From the NCBI GenBank assembly GCA_026686805.1, contig GCA_026686805.1_3949.1: a DNA stretch of 52,601 nucleotides; one strand, written 5' to 3'. This DNA comes from a phage. The position numbers and the translations under genes are program-made. The notes under the pieces are model-generated. The model searched no databases, was not told where the DNA came from, and saw nothing but the letters and a program-made list of their open reading frames with translations. This document shows, piece by piece, positions 4,716 through 48,635 of the stretch (position 1 is its first letter; every line of letters starts with the position of its first letter).

Positions 4716-5219
4716 CTATAATTGTAGGTTGCATTCTTTACTTACCTCTTCAAGTTTAACTTCAGAGTCCTTAAGTCGTTTCTTATGAACTCTGAATCTT
4801 AGTAGTGAGATTATGATACCAGCTAAAGGAACAGCATACAAGTACCAAACATCATATATCTTTGCAGTAATCTGTGTAATAGTCAAGTCTTGAGCTATGT
4901 AGCTGATTGCTGATACGGCTAGTAATGTTGCTAAGAAGAAAACCAGTATCATAGCAATATTCAGACAACCTCTGGCATGGTATTCATGCTTAATGCACTT
5001 ATTCTTCTCTTCAACAACACTGTTGTAGTCATTTGTAAAGTCTCTGTAGAAAGCTTTCAAGTATTCTTGAGTGTAGCCTTCAAAGCAACCTGTACCATAC
5101 CAATAATCACCACCAAAATGCGCTATGATACCGGTATCCCCATTTGGTTTGGTTACTCTCAAAGAGGTGTGATGACGAGTATCTTGATAGTCTATTTTGT
5201 ATCTTTCTTCATAAATCAT
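4716..5219 (-). CDS. hypothetical membrane protein (167 aa)
   Basis: ORF from track; long hydrophobic stretch (IAMILVFFLATLLAVSAISYIAQ...AVPLAGIIISLL). Confidence 0.5.
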   Translation of the reverse strand: MIYEERYKIDYQDTRHHTSLRVTKPNGDTGIIAHFGGDYWYGTGCFEGYTQEYLKAFYRDFTNDYNSVVEEKNKCIKHEYHARGCLNIAMILVFFLATLLAVSAISYIAQDLTITQITAKIYDVWYLYAVPLAGIIISLLRFRVHKKRLKDSEVKLEEVSKECNLQL

Positions 5220-7568: not shown

Positions 7569-8033
7569 TTACTTTGGATATAGATTGTCAAGATAAATGG
7601 CAGCTTCCATTCTACGTCTGTTTTTCAGGCCGTTTGAAGTGACCTTCTTACCTTTTACTGTAACCTTGTTCCACCACTGCATAGCTTCTGCACAACCGAC
7701 CTTATTACCAGCATTGTGGCGCTTGATAAATGTAGAGTCCTGCATAGCTGTGATACCAATGTTGTATGTTTCACTTACAAGTGCATCAAACTCGTTCTGA
7801 GAAGTTGGAACCTTGATAGCTTTGTTCACTGCTGCAACGAACTTTTCAACATCTGCGAGAAGATACTGTTCAGCTTGTTCAGCGGTAATCTTCATACCCA
7901 TCTTAACAGGTTTTCCGTCAATACGGATTGTCCCATACCCAATTGTTGGGATTCCGGCAGAGTCTTCGTAAGCCTCTAACTTCAGACCTTCGAAGAACTT
8001 AATAGCATCTAAACCTTTTCTTGAGAGTTGCAT
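7569..8033 (-). CDS. endolysin, phage lysozyme (GH24, T4-lysozyme-like)
   Basis: N-terminal motif ...FEGLKLEAYEDSAGIPTIGYGT... matches the catalytic Glu/Asp/Thr region of GH24 lysozymes (from memory); 154 aa. Confidence 0.8.
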   Translation of the reverse strand: MQLSRKGLDAIKFFEGLKLEAYEDSAGIPTIGYGTIRIDGKPVKMGMKITAEQAEQYLLADVEKFVAAVNKAIKVPTSQNEFDALVSETYNIGITAMQDSTFIKRHNAGNKVGCAEAMQWWNKVTVKGKKVTSNGLKNRRRMEAAIYLDNLYPK

Positions 8034-8917
8034 TATGCCTCCCCTGCTGGATTAACTGTAACTGTTGCTGCATTAGATGTTACAGAGCCACCTGCGCCAG
8101 TAACTACACAGGTGTAGCTTCCTGAATCAGCAGCGGTTGCTCCTTCTTTGGTGTAGGTTGCAGTAGTTGCATCGAGGATGTCTTCCTCATCTTTCTTCCA
8201 CTGATAACCTGTTGCACCTGTTGCCACAACATTCAACGTTAAGGTCTCACCTTCATTGATTTCTTGATTGGTTGGCTGTTGAGTGATGACAGGTAGTGCG
8301 TTCACAGTCACTGTTGCTGCATCTGAGGTAACACTTGTTCCACCCTCTCCAGATACAACACAAGTGTATGAACCAGCGTCAGAAGGTGCTACTGACTGTT
8401 TTGTGTAAGTTGCAGAATTGGCACTAGGGATGTCCTCACCATCCTTTTTCCATTGATATCCAGTGGCATTAGTTGCAATAACGCTTAGGGTAAGTGTACC
8501 CCCTTCATTTACTGTTTGATTGGTTGGTTGCTGAGTGATTGATGGTGGTGTGATGACATCTTTCAACTTAGCATTCAACATTGAGAACGGCTTAACTCTT
8601 GCCAACCATTCACAGTAAATTGTGTCAACATCTTTACCATTGATGATTGCATACTGCAAATCCATGAAGAAATCAGCAGTTCTCATCTGTGCACCAACAC
8701 TGTAAAGCAATTCATCACTAAATGGAACTTTGTAGTCTGGTTTGTAGTCAAACTTCTCAACTTCTGCAATATCAGCTTCAGGCCAATATGAACTATAGGT
8801 AAGTGGTAAAATAGCCTCTTGATATGTTCTAAAATCATATCTCTTACCAGCCTTTACGTTTGCAATGAAGCCCTTCACAAACTCTTTAAAGTCTGGGTAA
8901 GTCTTTGCTTTAATCAT
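8033..8917 (-). CDS. protein with N-terminal domain paralogous to the adjacent gene plus two tandem Ig-like domains
   Basis: two ~85-aa repeats (..PSITQQPTNQTVNEGGTLTLSV.ATNATGYQWKKDGEDI...SYTCVVSGEGG..VTSDAATVTVN) typical of Ig/I-set-like folds; N-terminus aligns with ORF 8914..9285. Confidence 0.6.
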   Translation of the reverse strand: MIKAKTYPDFKEFVKGFIANVKAGKRYDFRTYQEAILPLTYSSYWPEADIAEVEKFDYKPDYKVPFSDELLYSVGAQMRTADFFMDLQYAIINGKDVDTIYCEWLARVKPFSMLNAKLKDVITPPSITQQPTNQTVNEGGTLTLSVIATNATGYQWKKDGEDIPSANSATYTKQSVAPSDAGSYTCVVSGEGGTSVTSDAATVTVNALPVITQQPTNQEINEGETLTLNVVATGATGYQWKKDEEDILDATTATYTKEGATAADSGSYTCVVTGAGGSVTSNAATVTVNPAGEA

Positions 8918-16174: not shown

Positions 16175-16732
16175 ATGAGATATTTGAAGTATGCTTCATG
16201 GATTTTCTTAGCTTTGTTAGAGCCATTTGCAGCAATCTTAGCAGTTATCTTAGCACCTTTTGTAGTTCCATTCTACAGTGAGAAGAAAGGACACTTACCT
16301 TTCGGGTTCAGATGGATGGAGACATATGACAACCCAATTGATGGTGATGAAGGTCACGTTAAAAGATGGGCTAATATCAGATGGATTGGTAAACTAGGTG
16401 TCTACATGCAAAGAGTCGGATGGCTCTGGAGAAACAAAGCTTATAACTTCTCTTACCATGTATTAGGAAGAGATGTAAAAGATGTTACTAAGTGGAAAGG
16501 TAATATCAACGTAAGTTCTGACCCTGAAGATAATCAGACAGGTTATCTACTAATGTGGAACAGTAATGCTTGGGGATTATTCGCTTTTATCCCATCAATT
16601 AAAATCTTTGGTAAACAATTTTACTGGAGAATTTATATTGGATGGAAACTAAAAAGTGTTGTCCCAGAAGAAAGAGCATTCTCAAGGGAAAGAGTTATGT
16701 TGGCATTCTTTATTCATCCACTGAGAAAGTAA
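16175..16732 (+). CDS. hypothetical protein with hydrophobic N-terminus (185 aa), embedded in tRNA array
   Basis: ORF from track; N-terminal hydrophobic segment WIFLALLEPFAAILAVILAPFVVPF. Confidence 0.5.
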   Translation: MRYLKYASWIFLALLEPFAAILAVILAPFVVPFYSEKKGHLPFGFRWMETYDNPIDGDEGHVKRWANIRWIGKLGVYMQRVGWLWRNKAYNFSYHVLGRDVKDVTKWKGNINVSSDPEDNQTGYLLMWNSNAWGLFAFIPSIKIFGKQFYWRIYIGWKLKSVVPEERAFSRERVMLAFFIHPLRK

Positions 16733-37810: not shown

Positions 37811-38986
37811 ATGGCAGTAGGTGAAATTCAAATTAGTGCCTTGCCACAAGCGGCCTTACCAATCGATTTGAGTGATATCTTCCACCTTAAGCAAGGTGTT
37901 GAGGATAAAAGATGTACGCTTGAGCAGTTGTTAGCACCTCACACATCTTTGAGGAATAACCCTCATGGTGTAACTAAATCACAAGTAGGTCTTGATAATG
38001 TTATTAACTCTCTTCAATTAGTTGCAGCTAATAACTTGTCAGACATTGTAAATGTTGCTGAGGCAAGAGCAAATCTACAAATTATGTCGTCAGAGGAAGT
38101 GAATAACTTAATTCAGCAACATATTGACGATAAAAGCAACCCACACAACACAACGAAAGCACAGGTTGGTTTAAGTAATGTTCAGAACTGGACAACATCT
38201 AATCTGTACAATGAAGATGCTGATAAGTATGCTACAGCGAGAGCAGTGAATAATCTATACAAAGCTATCCAAGCATCATATCCAGTGGGTACTATTCATC
38301 TATCTGTTAACTCTGCTAACCCATCCACTTACTTGCTTTGTGGAGGTACTTGGGAGTTAGTTTCTAAAGGTAGAGCACTAGTTGGTTATGATACAGATTC
38401 TAGACCTGTTGGTTCAACGTTTGGTTCTCAGACTGTAGCATTAACAAATAATAATTTACCAGCGCATACTCACTCTATCTATCTAACAGGTGGTGGTCAT
38501 ACACACTCTGCAAGTGTATCTATCTCTAGTTTTGATTATGGTTCAAAAAGTACATCAACTTTTGATTACGGTACAAAAACGACTAATAGTGCTGGTGCTC
38601 ACACTCACACGTTTAGTGGCACAACAAGTAATGCTGGTAACCACAACCATAGAGTCCCTATGAGGGGTAATGATAGGGGTGGCACAAACGCTATTACTGC
38701 ATCTGCTGATGCTGGTGTTGGTAATGCTATGTATACTGATTTAGCTGGTGCTCACACCCATAGCTTCTCAGGTACAACTGCATCATCTGGTGCTCATAGC
38801 CATACTGTCGCAATTGGTGCTCACAGCCACACTGTTAATATTGGTTCGCACAGTCATACAGGCACTGTTACTGTTTCTAGCTCTGAGCACACACACTCAG
38901 GGACATCTGGTTCTGTTGGTGGTGGTCAAGCTTTCAGTGTTGAGCAGCCATCTTTTGTAGTGTATGTGTGGCAGAGAACAGCTTAA
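37811..38986 (+). CDS. tail fiber protein with multiple HxH repeats
   Basis: C-terminal half contains repeated HTHS/HSHT/HNHR motifs and ends ...QAFSVEQPSFVVYVWQRTA, paralogous to the C-terminus of the next gene. Confidence 0.65.
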   Translation: MAVGEIQISALPQAALPIDLSDIFHLKQGVEDKRCTLEQLLAPHTSLRNNPHGVTKSQVGLDNVINSLQLVAANNLSDIVNVAEARANLQIMSSEEVNNLIQQHIDDKSNPHNTTKAQVGLSNVQNWTTSNLYNEDADKYATARAVNNLYKAIQASYPVGTIHLSVNSANPSTYLLCGGTWELVSKGRALVGYDTDSRPVGSTFGSQTVALTNNNLPAHTHSIYLTGGGHTHSASVSISSFDYGSKSTSTFDYGTKTTNSAGAHTHTFSGTTSNAGNHNHRVPMRGNDRGGTNAITASADAGVGNAMYTDLAGAHTHSFSGTTASSGAHSHTVAIGAHSHTVNIGSHSHTGTVTVSSSEHTHSGTSGSVGGGQAFSVEQPSFVVYVWQRTA

Positions 38987-38996
38987 TTTCTTTACA

Positions 38997-39018
38997 GGGG
39001 CTATAAAGCCCCTTTTAA
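38997..39018 (+). terminator. hairpin between the two tail fiber genes
   Basis: aggggc-tataaa-gcccct followed by ttttaag (short U tract). Confidence 0.3.
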
Positions 39019-39032
39019 GAGGAAAATTCATA

Positions 39033-41582
39033 ATGGCAGATTACAAATTGAGTCAATTAAACTCAATCGACACAATTCGTTCAGAAGACCTATTGCACAT
39101 CAGAGTTAAGAAAAGACCTGAAATGTTGGGTGATGAAGACCGCAGAATGACCTATCAAGACTTCTTAGCTTCCTTCAAACTAGAAAGGTTTGTTCAGATT
39201 GCTGGAAGTAATATGACTGGGGATTTAGGTATTGTCAAGTTACTTTATGGTGGTAAGGCAGTATTTGACCCTACAGGTTCTTCTGAAATTACTATTGGGG
39301 ATGTTTTAAAGACTTTTAAACTTAATGCAAATGGTCTTAAACTAACTATTGCAGATGCTTCAAGGTCAGCAACTGTTTATCATACTCTGAATAAGCCAAG
39401 TCCTAATGAGCTTGGTATGAGAACTAATGAAGAGAATGACGCAAGATATGCAAGACTTGCTATCACAAACACATTCTCTGGAACTCAAAATATTCAAGGT
39501 GATGCTAACTTACTTCGCCTTAGAAACCAAAATGCAAATAATGCACAATACATCGAAGGTGTAAACCTAGATGGTTCGGCTAGATGGTGGGTTGGTATTG
39601 GTAGTAATGGCTCTGATGAAGTAAAGCTGTACAATAACAAATACAACTCAGCCTTGACTGTTGCAAGTAATGTCTCTGTTAATAAGTCTTTAGCAATCAC
39701 TGGTCAAGTTCAACCTTCAGATTTCTCTAACTTAGATGCTAGATACTTCACTCAGACAGTTGCTAATCAGAGATTTGCACAGTTAGCTGCTAATAATAAT
39801 TTCACGGGCACTAACACGTTTAGTAGAAATCTAACCATCATTAGTGACAGTGCTGCTTTAAGGTTGAAAAATGCAACAGCTAGCTCACTATTCATTCAGG
39901 GTGTTGACTCTCAGAACACTAACAGGTGGTATGTAGGGAACGGGGATAACACAGCCTCTGTGCTGCTACACAACTATGTACACGGTTCAAATATCAGGCT
40001 TGATAATGGCTATATCTCAGTCAACCAGAACTTCAGAATCACTGGTCAAATTCAACCTTCGGATTGGACTAATATTGACTCTAGATATATTCCGGCAGCA
40101 ACATTAAGTACGATTGCAAGGACTAATGCACAAAATACTTTTAATGGTGTACAGAAAGTTGTTACGGATAATGAAGCCCTAATTGTGAAAAACTCTACTC
40201 AGAACAGACCATTGTATATCCGTGGTGTGGACACTGCTAATGTGTCAAGGTGGTGGGTAGGTGTTGGTGGGGCAGATACTAATGATGTAACCCTAAATAA
40301 CAGTTATTCTGGAACCCAATTGGTTCTCGGGAATACAACATCATACATTAACAAAACATTGACTATTGCTGGACAAGTTCAACCTTCAGATTTCTCTAAC
40401 TTAGATGCTAGATACTTTACGCAAAGTGCTAGTGATAGTAGATACCTAAGAATCAGAAGCACTAGCTTCAATGTGGGAAACACTGATAAGTGGGCTAAAA
40501 TTGCCACTGTTGTGATGCCACAATCAGCATCCACTGCTGTTATTGAGGTATTTGGTGGGTCAGGTTTTAATATTAATACACCAAACCAAGCAGGTAAATG
40601 TGAAATTGTTCTGCGAACTTCAAATAACAATCCAAAGGGCTTAAATGTTGTTGCTTGGAGAACATCAGAGAACACCATTATCAGGGATATTGGTTATGTG
40701 AATACTTCTGGAGACACCTATGATATTTACTATCTTGCTGGTACGTATCAAAACAGCACAACGACAAGGGTTCAGTCTTCTAGTAATGCAAGTGTACAGT
40801 TGTTTGAAGTCCCACAGACATTTGATGATGCTCCACAAGGTATTGTGAAGGGTACAATTGCAAAATACTACACAAGTTTGCAAAAACCAACCCCTTCAGA
40901 TATTGGTGCATACACTAAAGCAGAAACTGACCAGAAGATTGCAGAAGCAATTAGTGACTCTACAGACCTGAATAAAATCTATCCAGTAGGTATTGTGACG
41001 TGGTTTAACAGTAATGTCAACCCTAATACAGCACTTCCTGGGTTAACTTGGACGTACCTGAACAATGGTGTTGGTAGAACTATTAGAATTGCAGCAGCAA
41101 ACGGTTCAGATGTTGCTACAACTGGTGGTTCAGACTCTGTAACGTTGTCTGTTGGTAACTTACCTTCACACACGCACAGCTTCTCTGCTACTACTTCATC
41201 ATTTGACTATGGTACTAAGACTTCTAGCACAACTGGTAACCACAACCACAACAGAGGTACTATGGAGATTACTGGTTCATTTGGTTACTTCAGAAGTGAC
41301 GCTAGTAGCTTCTACACAGCAAGTGGTGCATTCTACCTCGGTAGTCAGGCAGGTTCTAAAGGGTATACTGGTAACAACTTTACTAATGGTATCCCTGTCA
41401 ACTTCAACGCATCAAGAAACTGGTCTGGTGTAACGAATACAACAGGTAACCACAGCCACACTGTTGGTATTGGTGCTCACAGCCACACAGTTAGCGGTAA
41501 CACAGGTGGTACTGGTTCTGGTTCAGCATTTAGTGTTACTAACCAGTTCTATAAGTTAATGGCTTGGGTAAGAACTGCTTAA
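39033..41582 (+). CDS. tail fiber protein with three internal tandem repeats and HxH-rich C-terminus
   Basis: start set at ATG 39033 (AAGAGGAAA RBS) instead of track 38964; three ~100-aa repeats each ending ..ITGQVQPSDFSNLDARY..; C-terminus ...GNHSHTVGIGAHSHTV...SAFSVTNQFYKLMAWVRTA. Confidence 0.7.
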   Translation: MADYKLSQLNSIDTIRSEDLLHIRVKKRPEMLGDEDRRMTYQDFLASFKLERFVQIAGSNMTGDLGIVKLLYGGKAVFDPTGSSEITIGDVLKTFKLNANGLKLTIADASRSATVYHTLNKPSPNELGMRTNEENDARYARLAITNTFSGTQNIQGDANLLRLRNQNANNAQYIEGVNLDGSARWWVGIGSNGSDEVKLYNNKYNSALTVASNVSVNKSLAITGQVQPSDFSNLDARYFTQTVANQRFAQLAANNNFTGTNTFSRNLTIISDSAALRLKNATASSLFIQGVDSQNTNRWYVGNGDNTASVLLHNYVHGSNIRLDNGYISVNQNFRITGQIQPSDWTNIDSRYIPAATLSTIARTNAQNTFNGVQKVVTDNEALIVKNSTQNRPLYIRGVDTANVSRWWVGVGGADTNDVTLNNSYSGTQLVLGNTTSYINKTLTIAGQVQPSDFSNLDARYFTQSASDSRYLRIRSTSFNVGNTDKWAKIATVVMPQSASTAVIEVFGGSGFNINTPNQAGKCEIVLRTSNNNPKGLNVVAWRTSENTIIRDIGYVNTSGDTYDIYYLAGTYQNSTTTRVQSSSNASVQLFEVPQTFDDAPQGIVKGTIAKYYTSLQKPTPSDIGAYTKAETDQKIAEAISDSTDLNKIYPVGIVTWFNSNVNPNTALPGLTWTYLNNGVGRTIRIAAANGSDVATTGGSDSVTLSVGNLPSHTHSFSATTSSFDYGTKTSSTTGNHNHNRGTMEITGSFGYFRSDASSFYTASGAFYLGSQAGSKGYTGNNFTNGIPVNFNASRNWSGVTNTTGNHSHTVGIGAHSHTVSGNTGGTGSGSAFSVTNQFYKLMAWVRTA

Positions 41583-41661
41583 TCCCTTGTTGACTGATTG
41601 TTAAGATGGTGTTAATATTCTTTATGGGTATTCTCACCATCTTGGCTGATGAGGTGATTAA

Positions 41662-41856
41662 ATGCCTACAATCCTAGCAATTCTTCTAAAAAATCTAGGT
41701 AGCTTCTTCTGGAAACTCATTTTATCCCTTCTAAGTGAATACATGATTGAGAAAGTGTTCTTTAAGCTTGCAAGATACCTTGCGAGTAAAACAGACACAC
41801 CTATTGATGATGAGTTCGTAGATAACTTAGAGAAAGCTTTTAAAGGGGAGAAATAA
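41662..41856 (+). CDS. small protein with hydrophobic N-terminus (64 aa)
   Basis: ORF with GAGGTGA RBS. Confidence 0.45.
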   Translation: MPTILAILLKNLGSFFWKLILSLLSEYMIEKVFFKLARYLASKTDTPIDDEFVDNLEKAFKGEK

Positions 41857-42228
41857 ATGAAGTGGCTAGAGGAAGCTTTTAAAAATAATATTGGTGCAAT
41901 TGTAGTTGGTATTTTTAGTGTTATCGGGATGTATACCACTATGCAAGTTTCAAGTGGTAAGCAAGAAGTGTCTGTCACAACAAAGTTACAGCAGCTAGAT
42001 AATTATTCCAAAAGTAACTATTCAGCTATTCGTGATTTACAGTCTGACATGAGACTGATTCAGCTAGGGATGGAGAACCAGAAAGTCCAGTTAGAGAATG
42101 TTAAGGGTGAGAATGCAAAACTTACCAAAACTCTTGATAAATTCTCTGACAGTGTGAACAATCTGGCTCAATCAGTATCAGCCTTGCAAGCTATTACTGA
42201 AAAGAACACAAAGAATACTGAAAAATAA
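41857..42228 (+). CDS. membrane-anchored coiled-coil protein (123 aa)
   Basis: N-terminal TM-like segment IGAIVVGIFSVIGMYTTMQV then heptad-like helical region; GGGGAG RBS. Confidence 0.45.
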   Translation: MKWLEEAFKNNIGAIVVGIFSVIGMYTTMQVSSGKQEVSVTTKLQQLDNYSKSNYSAIRDLQSDMRLIQLGMENQKVQLENVKGENAKLTKTLDKFSDSVNNLAQSVSALQAITEKNTKNTEK

Positions 42229-42234
42229 AATTTA

Positions 42235-42262
42235 AGGCTCCTTTTTACGGGAGCCTTTTTGT
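42235..42262. terminator. bidirectional intrinsic terminator between convergent gene blocks
   Basis: hairpin ggctcc-tttttacg-ggagcc flanked by A-run upstream and tttttgttttt downstream. Confidence 0.6.
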
Positions 42263-42264
42263 TT

Positions 42265-43164
42265 TTACTTGCCTACTGACAGAGGTGCTTCAATCTTTCC
42301 TGCATGTTGGTAGTTGTAAATGCCACCAATAAAATCACTTGCAGTAAGGTGTTTTAGGTCACTTAGTGTGTTAAGTGGTACACCAATCTCAAAAGTAGGT
42401 GCATGGAACTCTTCATTGTTCATCAGTTCATAAACCTGCTTCATATGGTTCTGATAAATCTGGGTATCCCCAAAGACACCTATCAAGTACCGTGGAGTGT
42501 ATCCAGTCATCTTACAAAGAACTTCTAAGATGAAACCATAAGACGCAATGTTAAATGGAAGTCCTAAAAAGGTGTCTACAGAACGCTGATACCATTGCAA
42601 ATCCACTTCACCTTCATTAGTGATATAAATCTGAAACAGAACATGACAAGGTGCTAAAGCCATTGAGTTTGCTGCAATATCTGCTGCATTCCAAGCATTA
42701 ACAAGCATGTAACGGTCTGTGATATCACCCTTCATCTTCGTTACTAAGGTCTCTAGTTGGTCTACAACACAACCATTATGACCTTCAAAGTTTCTCCACT
42801 GAACCCCATAGATTCTCCCACCTGCATCATCTAACCAATCTTGTTCAGAAGAATAATTAGAGCTTAACCAGCGTTTAAAATCATCTGACCAGATAGTCCA
42901 GCGTTCCCCATCATTTTCACCCCAAGTACGGTAACGGAGTTCACCCAGCTTATTCTCACCATTCAGGAACCATAAAGCTTCCCCAATAACTTGCCGTGTA
43001 AACACCTGTTTAGATGTTAAAAGCGGGAAACCAGTTCGCATATCAAAACGAAACTGAGGTGGAGCAAAAGCAGAGATGACATCTCCAGTTCGTGTGGTAC
43101 GCAGTTCACCGACTGATAAAACATGGTTCAGGATATTTTTGTAACTCAAATCAGCTTGTGACAT
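42265..43164 (-). CDS. thyA: thymidylate synthase
   Basis: conserved ThyA motifs: ...LAPCHVLFQ... (active-site Cys) and ...QRSVDTFLGLPFNIASY...; 299 aa. Confidence 0.9.
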   Translation of the reverse strand: MSQADLSYKNILNHVLSVGELRTTRTGDVISAFAPPQFRFDMRTGFPLLTSKQVFTRQVIGEALWFLNGENKLGELRYRTWGENDGERWTIWSDDFKRWLSSNYSSEQDWLDDAGGRIYGVQWRNFEGHNGCVVDQLETLVTKMKGDITDRYMLVNAWNAADIAANSMALAPCHVLFQIYITNEGEVDLQWYQRSVDTFLGLPFNIASYGFILEVLCKMTGYTPRYLIGVFGDTQIYQNHMKQVYELMNNEEFHAPTFEIGVPLNTLSDLKHLTASDFIGGIYNYQHAGKIEAPLSVGK

Positions 43165-43165
43165 A

Positions 43166-43711
43166 TTAAAAGTGTCCTTTTACTTGTGGAACATAAATTT
43201 CAAAGGTTGCTTTACCATCTTCTGAAAGTCTTGACTGAACCTTTGCAAATACACGGTTATCATACAGCTTATCGAAGAAGTTTTCAAAAGGTAAATGCAC
43301 AGTGGCCTCTTCAGTCACTTTATGGAAGACTGTGTGGAACACTACATCAGCATACGGTAAAGCACTGACAAGAATACCTGCACCACCAATTACAAAAACA
43401 TCTTCATCAATAGAGCTATCAAGATACTTCAAAAATGCTCCAAAGGACTCTTTACTGGCCTTAGCATACATTACATCATCTTTGTCAAAATCTATACCTA
43501 AATATGGCACAGAATTTGTTAAGATAAGGTTTTCACGGTCAGGTAAAGGCTTACTACCCAGAGTCTTAAAAGTCTCATTACCCATGACTACTAAATTTCC
43601 TTTAGTGAGTCTCTTAAACTCTTGCATGTCCTGTTTATGTCTAGGCCACGGCATACCAGTTGGAGTACCGAACTCCCCATGTTCACCACTTGCAAAGATT
43701 AATTTAATCAT
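43166..43711 (-). CDS. folA: dihydrofolate reductase
   Basis: DHFR motifs: MIKLIFA..GEFG..GMPW, VVMGNETFKTLGSKPLPDRENLILT, VFVIGGAGI; adjacent to thyA. Confidence 0.85.
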   Translation of the reverse strand: MIKLIFASGEHGEFGTPTGMPWPRHKQDMQEFKRLTKGNLVVMGNETFKTLGSKPLPDRENLILTNSVPYLGIDFDKDDVMYAKASKESFGAFLKYLDSSIDEDVFVIGGAGILVSALPYADVVFHTVFHKVTEEATVHLPFENFFDKLYDNRVFAKVQSRLSEDGKATFEIYVPQVKGHF

Positions 43712-43968
43712 TTTGTAAATCCTTTCTTAATGAACCAGTTGATAACATTCTTCACAGCTTTATTGCTATGGTAGATTAAGTGTGGTGTAGGTTGGTATGA
43801 ACCATAAGCCCAGAAAGCAATGATTTCATTGCACTCTGTACACCTTGTACTCTCTTCAGCAATATGACCGTTGACTATTTCACTTACCTCACCTTGTAAG
43901 TCTGTACATCCACAATGTGGACATCGGATAGGTGTTCCATCAGACTCATAGCAGTGTTCAATTTCCAT
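43708..43968 (-). CDS. zinc-ribbon protein (86 aa)
   Basis: two Cys pairs CPHCGC ... CTECNE. Confidence 0.5.
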   Translation of the reverse strand: MEIEHCYESDGTPIRCPHCGCTDLQGEVSEIVNGHIAEESTRCTECNEIIAFWAYGSYQPTPHLIYHSNKAVKNVINWFIKKGFTK

Positions 43969-48160: not shown

Positions 48161-48418
48161 TCATTTTCTCTTACCTCCAATCTCTACATCAATAACTTGA
48201 ACATCACCAGCAACATCAAAATTATGAATGATGCTCTCCACAGTGTAAGTCCAACCATCAATGCGAACCAACTCACCTTCTCGTGGGACTATTGGGTTAC
48301 GTTGAGCTACGGTTGTAGTGGAGTGAACAACATCATAACAATAGATGTAGTTTACTAAGACTTCCATCGCGAAAACCTCACTCAATAACCGTAGTGTGTG
48401 ATTGTCCATTTTTGCCAT
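48161..48418 (-). CDS. hypothetical protein (start uncertain)
   Basis: ORF from track; overlaps upstream lipoprotein ORF by 41 nt. Confidence 0.4.
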   Translation of the reverse strand: MAKMDNHTLRLLSEVFAMEVLVNYIYCYDVVHSTTTVAQRNPIVPREGELVRIDGWTYTVESIIHNFDVAGDVQVIDVEIGGKRK

Positions 48419-48635
48419 AGTTGTAAGATGTTGTTGTTTGAGAATTTGGACATCTTACAACAACAATATCTCTGCTTATAGCATCACCATTGAGTTTGTA
48501 GATTTTGCAGTCTTGCATCTCTGGAGGGAGGCTGTAAGAAGCATCTTTGTTTTCATAAGATGGGTTGCAGCCAGATAGAAAAATTACTCCAAGTGCAACC
48601 ATTGCTTTCACACAAATCTTAACCTTATTGTTCAC
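48378..48635 (-). CDS. putative lipoprotein
   Basis: signal peptide ending in lipobox-like LSGC (..MVALGVIFLSGCNPS..). Confidence 0.45.
   Translation of the reverse strand: MNNKVKICVKAMVALGVIFLSGCNPSYENKDASYSLPPEMQDCKIYKLNGDAISRDIVVVRCPNSQTTTSYNYGKNGQSHTTVIE

Follow-up and report, generated by a model that had tools for sequence, protein, structure and literature searches.

What two small genes are doing behind the tail fibers of a Felix O1-like phage, far from its endolysin, is the question raised by the locus considered here. In Felix O1, a classical phage of diagnostics and biocontrol, no holin has ever been identified, and one of the two genes is annotated as "holin" in some records and as "hypothetical" in others. 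The locus lies in a phage contig of 52,601 nt (contig GCA_026686805.1_3949.1 of GenBank assembly GCA_026686805.1), the whole of which is hereafter called the window. It consists of two open reading frames (ORFs):

X, 41662-41856, plus strand: 64-aa ORF of the PM2 P18 (gp l) family (PF26925/phrog_402), a putative accessory lysis factor.
Y, 41857-42228, plus strand: 123-aa ORF for a predicted bitopic protein, ortholog of Felix O1 gp79 (phrog_4038), a candidate holin.

Region 38900-43800 of the window matches Felixounavirus genomes (260 records in all) and is closest (96.5% identity) to Escherichia phage wV8 and the O157 typing phages; by sequence, the window can be classed as a wV8-like Felixounavirus. 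We consider it probable, if not strongly so, that X and Y constitute a lysis module of two genes at the 3′ end of a late tail-fiber transcription unit, with the endolysin and the spanins encoded elsewhere.

The argument starts from the family of X. X matched phrog_402 with an E-value of 1.4e-22, and so did the 51-aa gp l (P18) of phage PM2 (8.2e-14). When compared by BLASTP, residues 19-60 of X and gp l were 38% identical over 42 aa (36.6 bits), and a hidden Markov model of the X family found gp l at 3.4e-6. The Pfam family PF26925 (Phage_PM2_Gpl) is precomputed on all of the X relatives listed (23 close and 120 distant) and on the near-identical cluster representatives of X. Pfam/NCBIfam scans of X and Y, made with a Pfam set lacking PF26925, returned only sub-threshold coiled-coil noise (DivIC, SMC), and a Foldseek search of the X model against BFVD returned family members only. 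The assignment of X to the P18 family has good support; it appears in none of the annotations or papers examined and is new here. X is called "hypothetical" in essentially all records listed, and one record labels it a putative L-fuculose phosphate aldolase. According to the passages on Krupovic et al. (2007) in two later articles (PMC6356626, PMC9502842), P18 is needed for disruption of the outer membrane, the last step of PM2 lysis, and its partner P17 (gp k) represents a distinct holin class that depolarizes and permeabilizes the cytoplasmic membrane. The P18 family is the only small-protein lysis family of this type with genetics behind it, those of PM2. The link of X to P18 therefore lends independent comparative support to the locus as the missing part of the Felix O1 lysis system.

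Is X a membrane protein? The first-pass annotation, made from the sequence, had described both products as small membrane-type proteins and had noted a hydrophobic N-terminus in X. The latter was recovered, with a Kyte-Doolittle mean of 1.56, under the threshold of 1.6 that we used for a transmembrane domain (TMD) in a 19-residue window. AlphaFold2, supplied with a 65-sequence alignment, placed helices at residues 2-23, 26-44, and 47-61 (mean predicted local distance difference test, pLDDT, of 83.7). Charges are conserved across the family at position 10 (K/R in 94%), position 18 (K/R in 92%), and E26 (98%), and because of these residues we regard helix 1 as amphipathic and not as a canonical TMD. 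No signal peptide or lipobox was detected in X. As modeled, X is probably an amphipathic three-helix protein and probably not a membrane protein. In this it has the traits of its family, whose members are small (~50-75 aa), helical, and devoid of a canonical TMD or signal peptide; the available descriptions of PM2 P18 likewise give it no TMD. The membrane-type label is thus doubtful for X, with its conserved charges in an amphipathic first helix.

The neighborhoods of X homologs in distant phages carry the second part of the argument. A degenerate DNA pattern for the X-family core retrieved 31 viral contigs, all 31 of which encode true family members; 7 further homologs were placed on assembled contigs, and a metagenome scan for X-related loci gave 3 loci only. 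An endolysin Pfam domain lay directly upstream of X in six of seven look-ups (Phage_lysozyme three times, Peptidase_M15_3 twice, and Peptidase_M15_4 once). The viral contigs add endolysins of the GH24, GH108 plus PG_binding_3, M15_3, and M15_4 types, and in a Vibrio phage a lysozyme-like gene is followed by X. Since four unrelated endolysin families adjoin one small gene, the pattern is the mosaic one typical of lysis cassettes. SLT-like (phrog_3108) and DUF5675 (phrog_1501) proteins were also seen upstream of X; being unconfirmed as endolysins, they were not counted.

Proteins of 90-130 aa with a single TMD and a coiled coil adjoin X on either side in distant phages. They follow X in contigs L025-27 and L071 and precede it in L032, L035, L040, L043, L056, and L057, and in L051 and L070 the TMD of the neighboring protein is at its C-terminus. 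The endolysin, the TMD-coil protein, and X share one gene run in L057, L025, and L071. The slot beside X holds the experimentally supported P17 holin in PM2, the T4-holin homolog t in Krischvirus, and Y in the Ounavirinae. The PM2 genome has k (P17) followed by l (P18), and gp k has an N-terminal TMD and a short amphipathic helix. In the T4-like Krischvirus ECD7, the distal tail fiber gene gp37 is followed by the X homolog and then by t, the product of which matched Phage_holin_T at 5e-61. Homologs of X in relatives thus usually stand in lysis cassettes; in the window X adjoins Y only, and the endolysin is 34 kb off. The wide association of the X family with endolysins and with single-TMD coiled-coil proteins among tailed phages, spanin carriers included, is new and was in no annotation or paper examined.

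Two further features of these neighborhoods deserve mention. After the run of endolysin, X, and Y-like genes, a very lysine-rich ORF of 44-54 aa occurs in L025 (4521-4685; MPKKKNGEAAKKKKGG…) and in L071 (4410-4544; MVVFAKKKIDPADKGKKKK…). In these unrelated marine or metagenomic phages, the ORF might encode a further cationic lysis peptide. One X clade stands alone on its strand in high-GC prophage-like contigs (L042, 1735-2447, and L049, 7609-7860), with holin-like small proteins of several TMDs nearby on the opposite strand.

Does Y look like a holin? The first-pass annotation had reported a TM-like segment followed by a coiled coil, and both elements were recovered. Y has one hydrophobic segment, residues 11-31 (nt 41887-41949), which is of moderate strength (Kyte-Doolittle 1.62). 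AlphaFold2 gave a helix at residues 3-32, a short linker of low confidence, and one continuous helix with pLDDT >90:

Long helix/coiled coil of Y, residues 40-122 (~83 residues), nt 41974-42222, plus strand: AlphaFold2 prediction.

The heptad signal of Y had a p of ~0.04 against shuffles, and its C-terminus is hydrophilic and charged (KNTKNTEK). Small size, at least one TMD, and a charged hydrophilic C-terminus are all present, as looked for in a holin, with the TMD marginal. Y matched phrog_4038 at 1.7e-71. The family is narrow, with 6 hits among 1.84 billion representatives in an exhaustive HMMER search, and this was counted as holin-like since narrow families are usual for holins; the hits themselves offered no clue to function. 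Against the holin family phrog_1296, Y scored an E-value of 0.062, which is not significant; it had no holin match in Pfam or NCBIfam and no match to the P17 family phrog_32586, and BLASTP against P17 returned nothing significant. We rejected homology of Y with the T4-type holin T, with P17, or with the Y-like proteins of other phages, for which BLASTP and hhalign gave nothing significant; what Y has in common with them is its architecture only. Holin families are numerous and mutually unrelated, and for this reason the lack of family homology is not disqualifying for Y.

Y is the ortholog of Felix O1 gp79 and is 97-100% identical in most Felixounavirus records. Of 261 phage records, some label it "holin" or "putative holin," and others "hypothetical protein." Gp79, two positions after the tail fiber gp77, was among five possible Felix O1 holins (Whichard et al., 2010). 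The "putative holin" label on Y predates our analysis, the earlier annotations having been based on the TMD only. By analogy with the neighbors of P18-type genes elsewhere, Y is the best holin candidate.

The remaining lysis genes were then placed relative to X and Y, starting with the endolysin:

GH24 endolysin of 154 aa, 7569-8033, minus strand: Pfam Phage_lysozyme 6.6e-41; phrog_7 endolysin 3.7e-58.

Meda_090, an annotated endolysin, supports the identity of this product, and the gene does lie ~34 kb from X and Y on the other strand, as had been remarked from the sequence. Such dispersal has precedents, and the core idea of the first-pass annotation is in this sense not new: Felix O1 was described as having no holin-lysin cassette (Whichard et al., 2010), and genome announcements report scattered lysis genes in Felix O1-like phages. 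That of Moogle lists a "putative holin"; that of Meda reports no holin identified and leaves the protein "hypothetical." Spanins are likewise encoded elsewhere. Meda has a canonical overlapped pair of inner-membrane (i-) and outer-membrane (o-) spanins at 81153-81663, near rIIB, the corresponding position being outside the window. A spanin pair is also listed for Felix01, WV8, and JH2 (Kongari et al., 2018), and i-spanin homologs occur in 402 phage records. Y adjoins the P18-family gene X and is adjacent neither to the endolysin nor to the spanins.

Other genes of the window touch on this inventory. The minus-strand ORF at 4716-5219, on the endolysin strand and 2.3 kb away from that gene, encodes a 167-aa protein with two C-terminal TMDs (phrog_4343; "putative membrane protein" in Meda), which is a possible competitor to Y for the part of holin. 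The endolysin gene shares its operon with the ORF immediately upstream, 8033-8917 (minus strand), for a 294-aa protein with two near-identical, apparently Ig-like repeats; Meda has it as a "tail protein," and it may correspond to the Hoc-like decoration protein gp20 of Sf14. An 85-aa ORF at 48378-48635 (minus strand) carries a lipoprotein-type signal (…VALGVIFLSG, then the Cys) with no Pfam hit, and no i-spanin-like gene was noticed beside it; an orphan lipoprotein, perhaps one for superinfection exclusion, is conceivable. At 16175-16732 (plus strand), in the stretch where Meda has tRNA genes, lies a 185-aa ORF whose N-terminus is strongly hydrophobic.

Could Y be a spanin and not a holin? The first-pass annotation had likened it to either. 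Its architecture, an N-terminal TMD followed by a long helix, is that of an i-spanin, and there are weak matches to the "Rz-like spanin" family phrog_739 (E 0.009 for Y and 2e-7 for the Hafnia homolog). These may reflect the common composition of a TMD plus a coil. The RRK-rich N-terminus of P0269, a distant homolog of Y, suggests an N-in, C-out topology, and the family of X is tied to outer-membrane disruption in PM2. One could then envisage Y as similar to an i-spanin, anchored in the inner membrane with its coiled coil in the periplasm; with X, in place of an o-spanin, it would bring about a non-canonical disruption of the outer membrane. The holin would lie elsewhere, for example in another of the Felix O1 candidates or in the two-TMD protein of 4716-5219.

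As suggested in the first-pass annotation, an embedded lipoprotein gene was searched for. All frames of Y, of its orthologs, and of seven Y-like genes, each with 350 nt downstream, were scanned for lipobox ORFs. The scan recovered the Meda o-spanin as a positive control and revealed no conserved embedded, overlapping, or adjacent lipoprotein ORF for any of these genes. The sole candidate in Y, at 41906-41998 (plus strand, +1 frame), is a TTG-start ORF of 30 aa (MVFLVLSG, then CIPLC…) with 8 residues before the Cys. It was rejected as an embedded o-spanin and considered a chance ORF: it is broken by a stop codon in Sf14 and is absent in the Hafnia phage and in all Y-like genes. Close relatives already have a complete overlapped spanin pair, and Y showed no similarity to their i-spanin. 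Moreover, X has no signal peptide, the charges on either side of the TMD point to a C-in topology for most Y-like proteins, and the PM2 protein in the equivalent position, P17, is reported as a holin in the PM2 passages cited above. For lack of a partner lipoprotein ORF, and given the separate spanins of relatives, Y was rejected as a canonical i-spanin, and we think it unlikely that Y acts in the looser, spanin-like manner just outlined. Of the two likenesses first drawn for the 123-aa protein, that to a holin is the one we retain.

The layout of the locus bears on how X and Y would be expressed. Both ORFs are present behind the tail fibers, where they had first been noticed, and the elements around them are as follows:

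Long tail-fiber gene (872 aa), 38964-41582, plus strand: ORF directly upstream of X.
Sigma-70-like motif TTGACT-17-TAATAT with TG before the -10 hexamer, 41590-41618, plus strand: between the fiber gene and X, a consensus match only.
9-bp inverted repeat, AAGATGGTG (41603-41611) and CACCATCTT (41635-41643), plus strand: upstream of the X ribosome-binding site.
Terminator with a 9-bp stem and T-run, bidirectional, 42234 to 42257 or 42267, plus strand: closes the tail-fiber/X/Y transcription unit.

The start of the long fiber gene at 38964 is that of the mechanical ORF and overlaps the end of the preceding fiber gene (37811-38986); the start in the wV8 annotation corresponds to about window position 39033, 3′ of an annotated terminator. 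The stop codon of X (TAA) directly abuts the ATG of Y, and Shine-Dalgarno-like sequences precede X (GAGGTG, 41651-41656) and Y (AAGGGGAG, 41842-41849). The terminator after Y is the Rho-independent terminator of the wV8 and Meda annotations, and beyond it lie the convergent td and frd genes. All annotated relatives have the same order: short fiber, long fiber, 64-aa gene, 123-aa gene, terminator, and convergent thymidylate synthase and dihydrofolate reductase genes. The sequence of X, Y, and terminator is kept across the Ounavirinae, in Felixounavirus, Mooglevirus, Kolesnikvirus, and Hafnia phages. Relative to Mooglevirus Sf14, synonymous and non-synonymous codon changes number 21:5 in X and 50:12 in Y; this synonymous excess indicates that both are real genes under purifying selection.

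The sigma-70-like motif is kept in sequence in Felixounavirus and Mooglevirus, and matches of this kind are no more frequent in the region between the fiber gene and X than in shuffles of it. The inverted repeat is kept in JN01, JLBYU28, Meda, and Sf14. The whole intergenic stretch (41583-41661) is almost invariant in Felixounavirus and Mooglevirus; the Hafnia phage has a terminator-like hairpin there instead. As part of the tail-fiber unit, X and Y would be expressed as late genes.

Could the two proteins instead serve the tail fibers? X and Y come directly after two tail-fiber genes in all Ounavirinae, and X is found near tail or tail-fiber genes in Krischvirus, 7-11-like phages, Ss1, LAh_6, and a Plesiomonas myophage. 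One or both might then be tail-fiber assembly factors or minor virion components comparable to T4 gp38, gp57A, or fibritin-like coiled coils. Presence in virions had been named in the first-pass annotation as part of what would speak against a lytic role, and here the record is divided. In the cryo-electron microscopy paper on Sf14, mass spectrometry of particles revealed gp55 ("Holin or lysozyme"), which is the syntenic Y ortholog at 90% identity; the authors of that paper also noted that no Mu-type fiber chaperone is encoded. The Sf14 sample consisted of phage that had been pelleted and then precipitated with trichloroacetic acid, with no gradient step, and a putative assembly chaperone was present in it as well, for which reasons carry-over of membrane fragments is plausible. 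The Felix O1 virion proteome, based on cesium chloride (CsCl) purification, lacks gp78 and gp79. The main text on VpaE1, also a CsCl-based proteome, adds only gp54, gp58, and gp68 to the Felix O1 set, so that, as far as that main text goes, the VpaE1 orthologs of X and Y, gp76 and gp77, are absent.

X and Y are, in addition, 98-100% identical among phages whose long tail fibers differ markedly. Near-invariance beside diverging fibers disfavors a fiber-specific chaperone or a receptor-linked exclusion function, and argues against co-evolution with the fiber tip. PHROG and Pfam/NCBIfam scans gave no match of X or Y to tail-fiber chaperone families (Caudo_TAP and the T4 gp38 and gp57A types). X is also found in the tailless PM2, and beside endolysins where no fiber gene adjoins. 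On these grounds, we regard a role in fiber assembly or in the virion as quite improbable. Of the two possibilities left by the first-pass annotation, dispersed lysis genes or fiber assembly, the comparative evidence favors the former and disfavors the latter.

The same invariance bears on another membrane-directed function. Small membrane proteins or lipoproteins of T5-like and T1-like phages that are encoded beside receptor-binding genes suggest a parallel, in that X and Y would act at the membrane in superinfection exclusion or receptor masking. The position of small hydrophobic proteins beside receptor-binding genes fits such a role, as does a sigma-70-like promoter motif upstream of X. 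Neither protein has a lipobox or a signal peptide, however, and their sequences do not vary as the fibers do. The family of X is tied to endolysins and holins across unrelated phages, and its PM2 member is assigned a lysis function in the review passages mentioned. This explanation strikes us as very improbable.

How, then, would the pair act in lysis? Y would be a bitopic protein of the inner membrane that makes this membrane permeable and lets out the soluble GH24 endolysin, and X, a small, amphipathic, helical protein made in the cytoplasm, would act late in lysis. By analogy with P18, X may act on the outer membrane, here in a phage that carries spanins. We favor a dispersed lysis system that includes X and Y because X is a P18 homolog, because its family is linked to endolysins and holins, and because Y occupies the holin slot; in addition, scattered lysis genes have already been reported, and no other Felix O1-like holin is established.

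Several observations weigh against this interpretation. Y could not be linked by significant similarity to P17 of PM2, to T, or to any other holin family; its TMD is marginally hydrophobic, and its topology is ambiguous, the flanking charges being about neutral. The weak Rz-like spanin matches of Y and the detection of Sf14 gp55 in a particle preparation point in other directions. Felix-like and T4-like phages already have canonical spanins, so that an outer-membrane role for X would be redundant in them. In the podophages of the 7-11, Privateervirus, Lahexavirus, and SU10-like groups, X lies amid head, adaptor, and tail genes with no endolysin nearby. The sigma-70-like intergenic motif is not obviously a late signal. 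Finally, no experimental study of X or Y in any Ounavirinae phage was found in the literature examined.

Beyond this locus, we tentatively put forward a broader proposal, which we hold to be conceivable and somewhat short of probable. P18-type proteins (PF26925) would be a widespread third component of lysis cassettes in phages of Gram-negative bacteria, with genes that typically follow the endolysin gene directly and with single-TMD coiled-coil holins as partners. They would coexist with canonical spanins in Felix O1-like and RB49-like phages, and Y would be the Felix O1 holin. If so, P18-type proteins would provide a second, spanin-independent route of outer-membrane disruption, or play an accessory role to the holin, and the question is raised why phages that carry spanins would keep such a factor. 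The link between X and P18 furnishes a two-gene hypothesis that is testable in the genetically easy hosts E. coli and Salmonella, and the annotation of several hundred phage genomes would be improved.

Among known systems, the closest to the locus is the k-l pair of PM2. X is homologous to P18, as judged by PHROG, by Pfam family, and by the 42-aa alignment with 38% identity. The pair comes last in the late operon of both phages, behind the genes for receptor binding (spike or fiber), and the partner is in both a small protein whose single N-terminal TMD precedes an amphipathic or coiled helix. The differences are nevertheless considerable. P17, at 53 aa, is less than half as long as Y (123 aa), to which it has no detectable sequence similarity, and X has ~13 additional residues at its N-terminus. 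The order is inverted, X preceding Y here and k preceding l in PM2. The window phage has a soluble GH24 endolysin, and whereas PM2 is on the list of spanin-less phages, Felix-like phages carry a canonical spanin pair.

A second parallel is the T4-type arrangement gp37-(gp38)-t, in which the holin, like the candidate holin here, comes last in the tail-fiber operon, tens of kb from the endolysin (e in T4). In Krischvirus ECD7 the X homolog sits exactly between gp37 and t, and both T, a class III holin, and Y combine a single TMD with a large non-membrane domain. Y is, however, not homologous to T and has no Phage_holin_T domain, and the periplasmic domain of T is globular, whereas Y is predicted to form a single long helix outside its membrane segment. 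The third comparison is with i-spanins of the lambda Rz/Rz1 type, which Y resembles in its N-terminal TMD, its coiled coil of ~90 residues, and its weak Rz-like PHROG matches. It differs from them in having no cognate o-spanin lipoprotein gene, and the relatives have a bona fide spanin pair at another locus.

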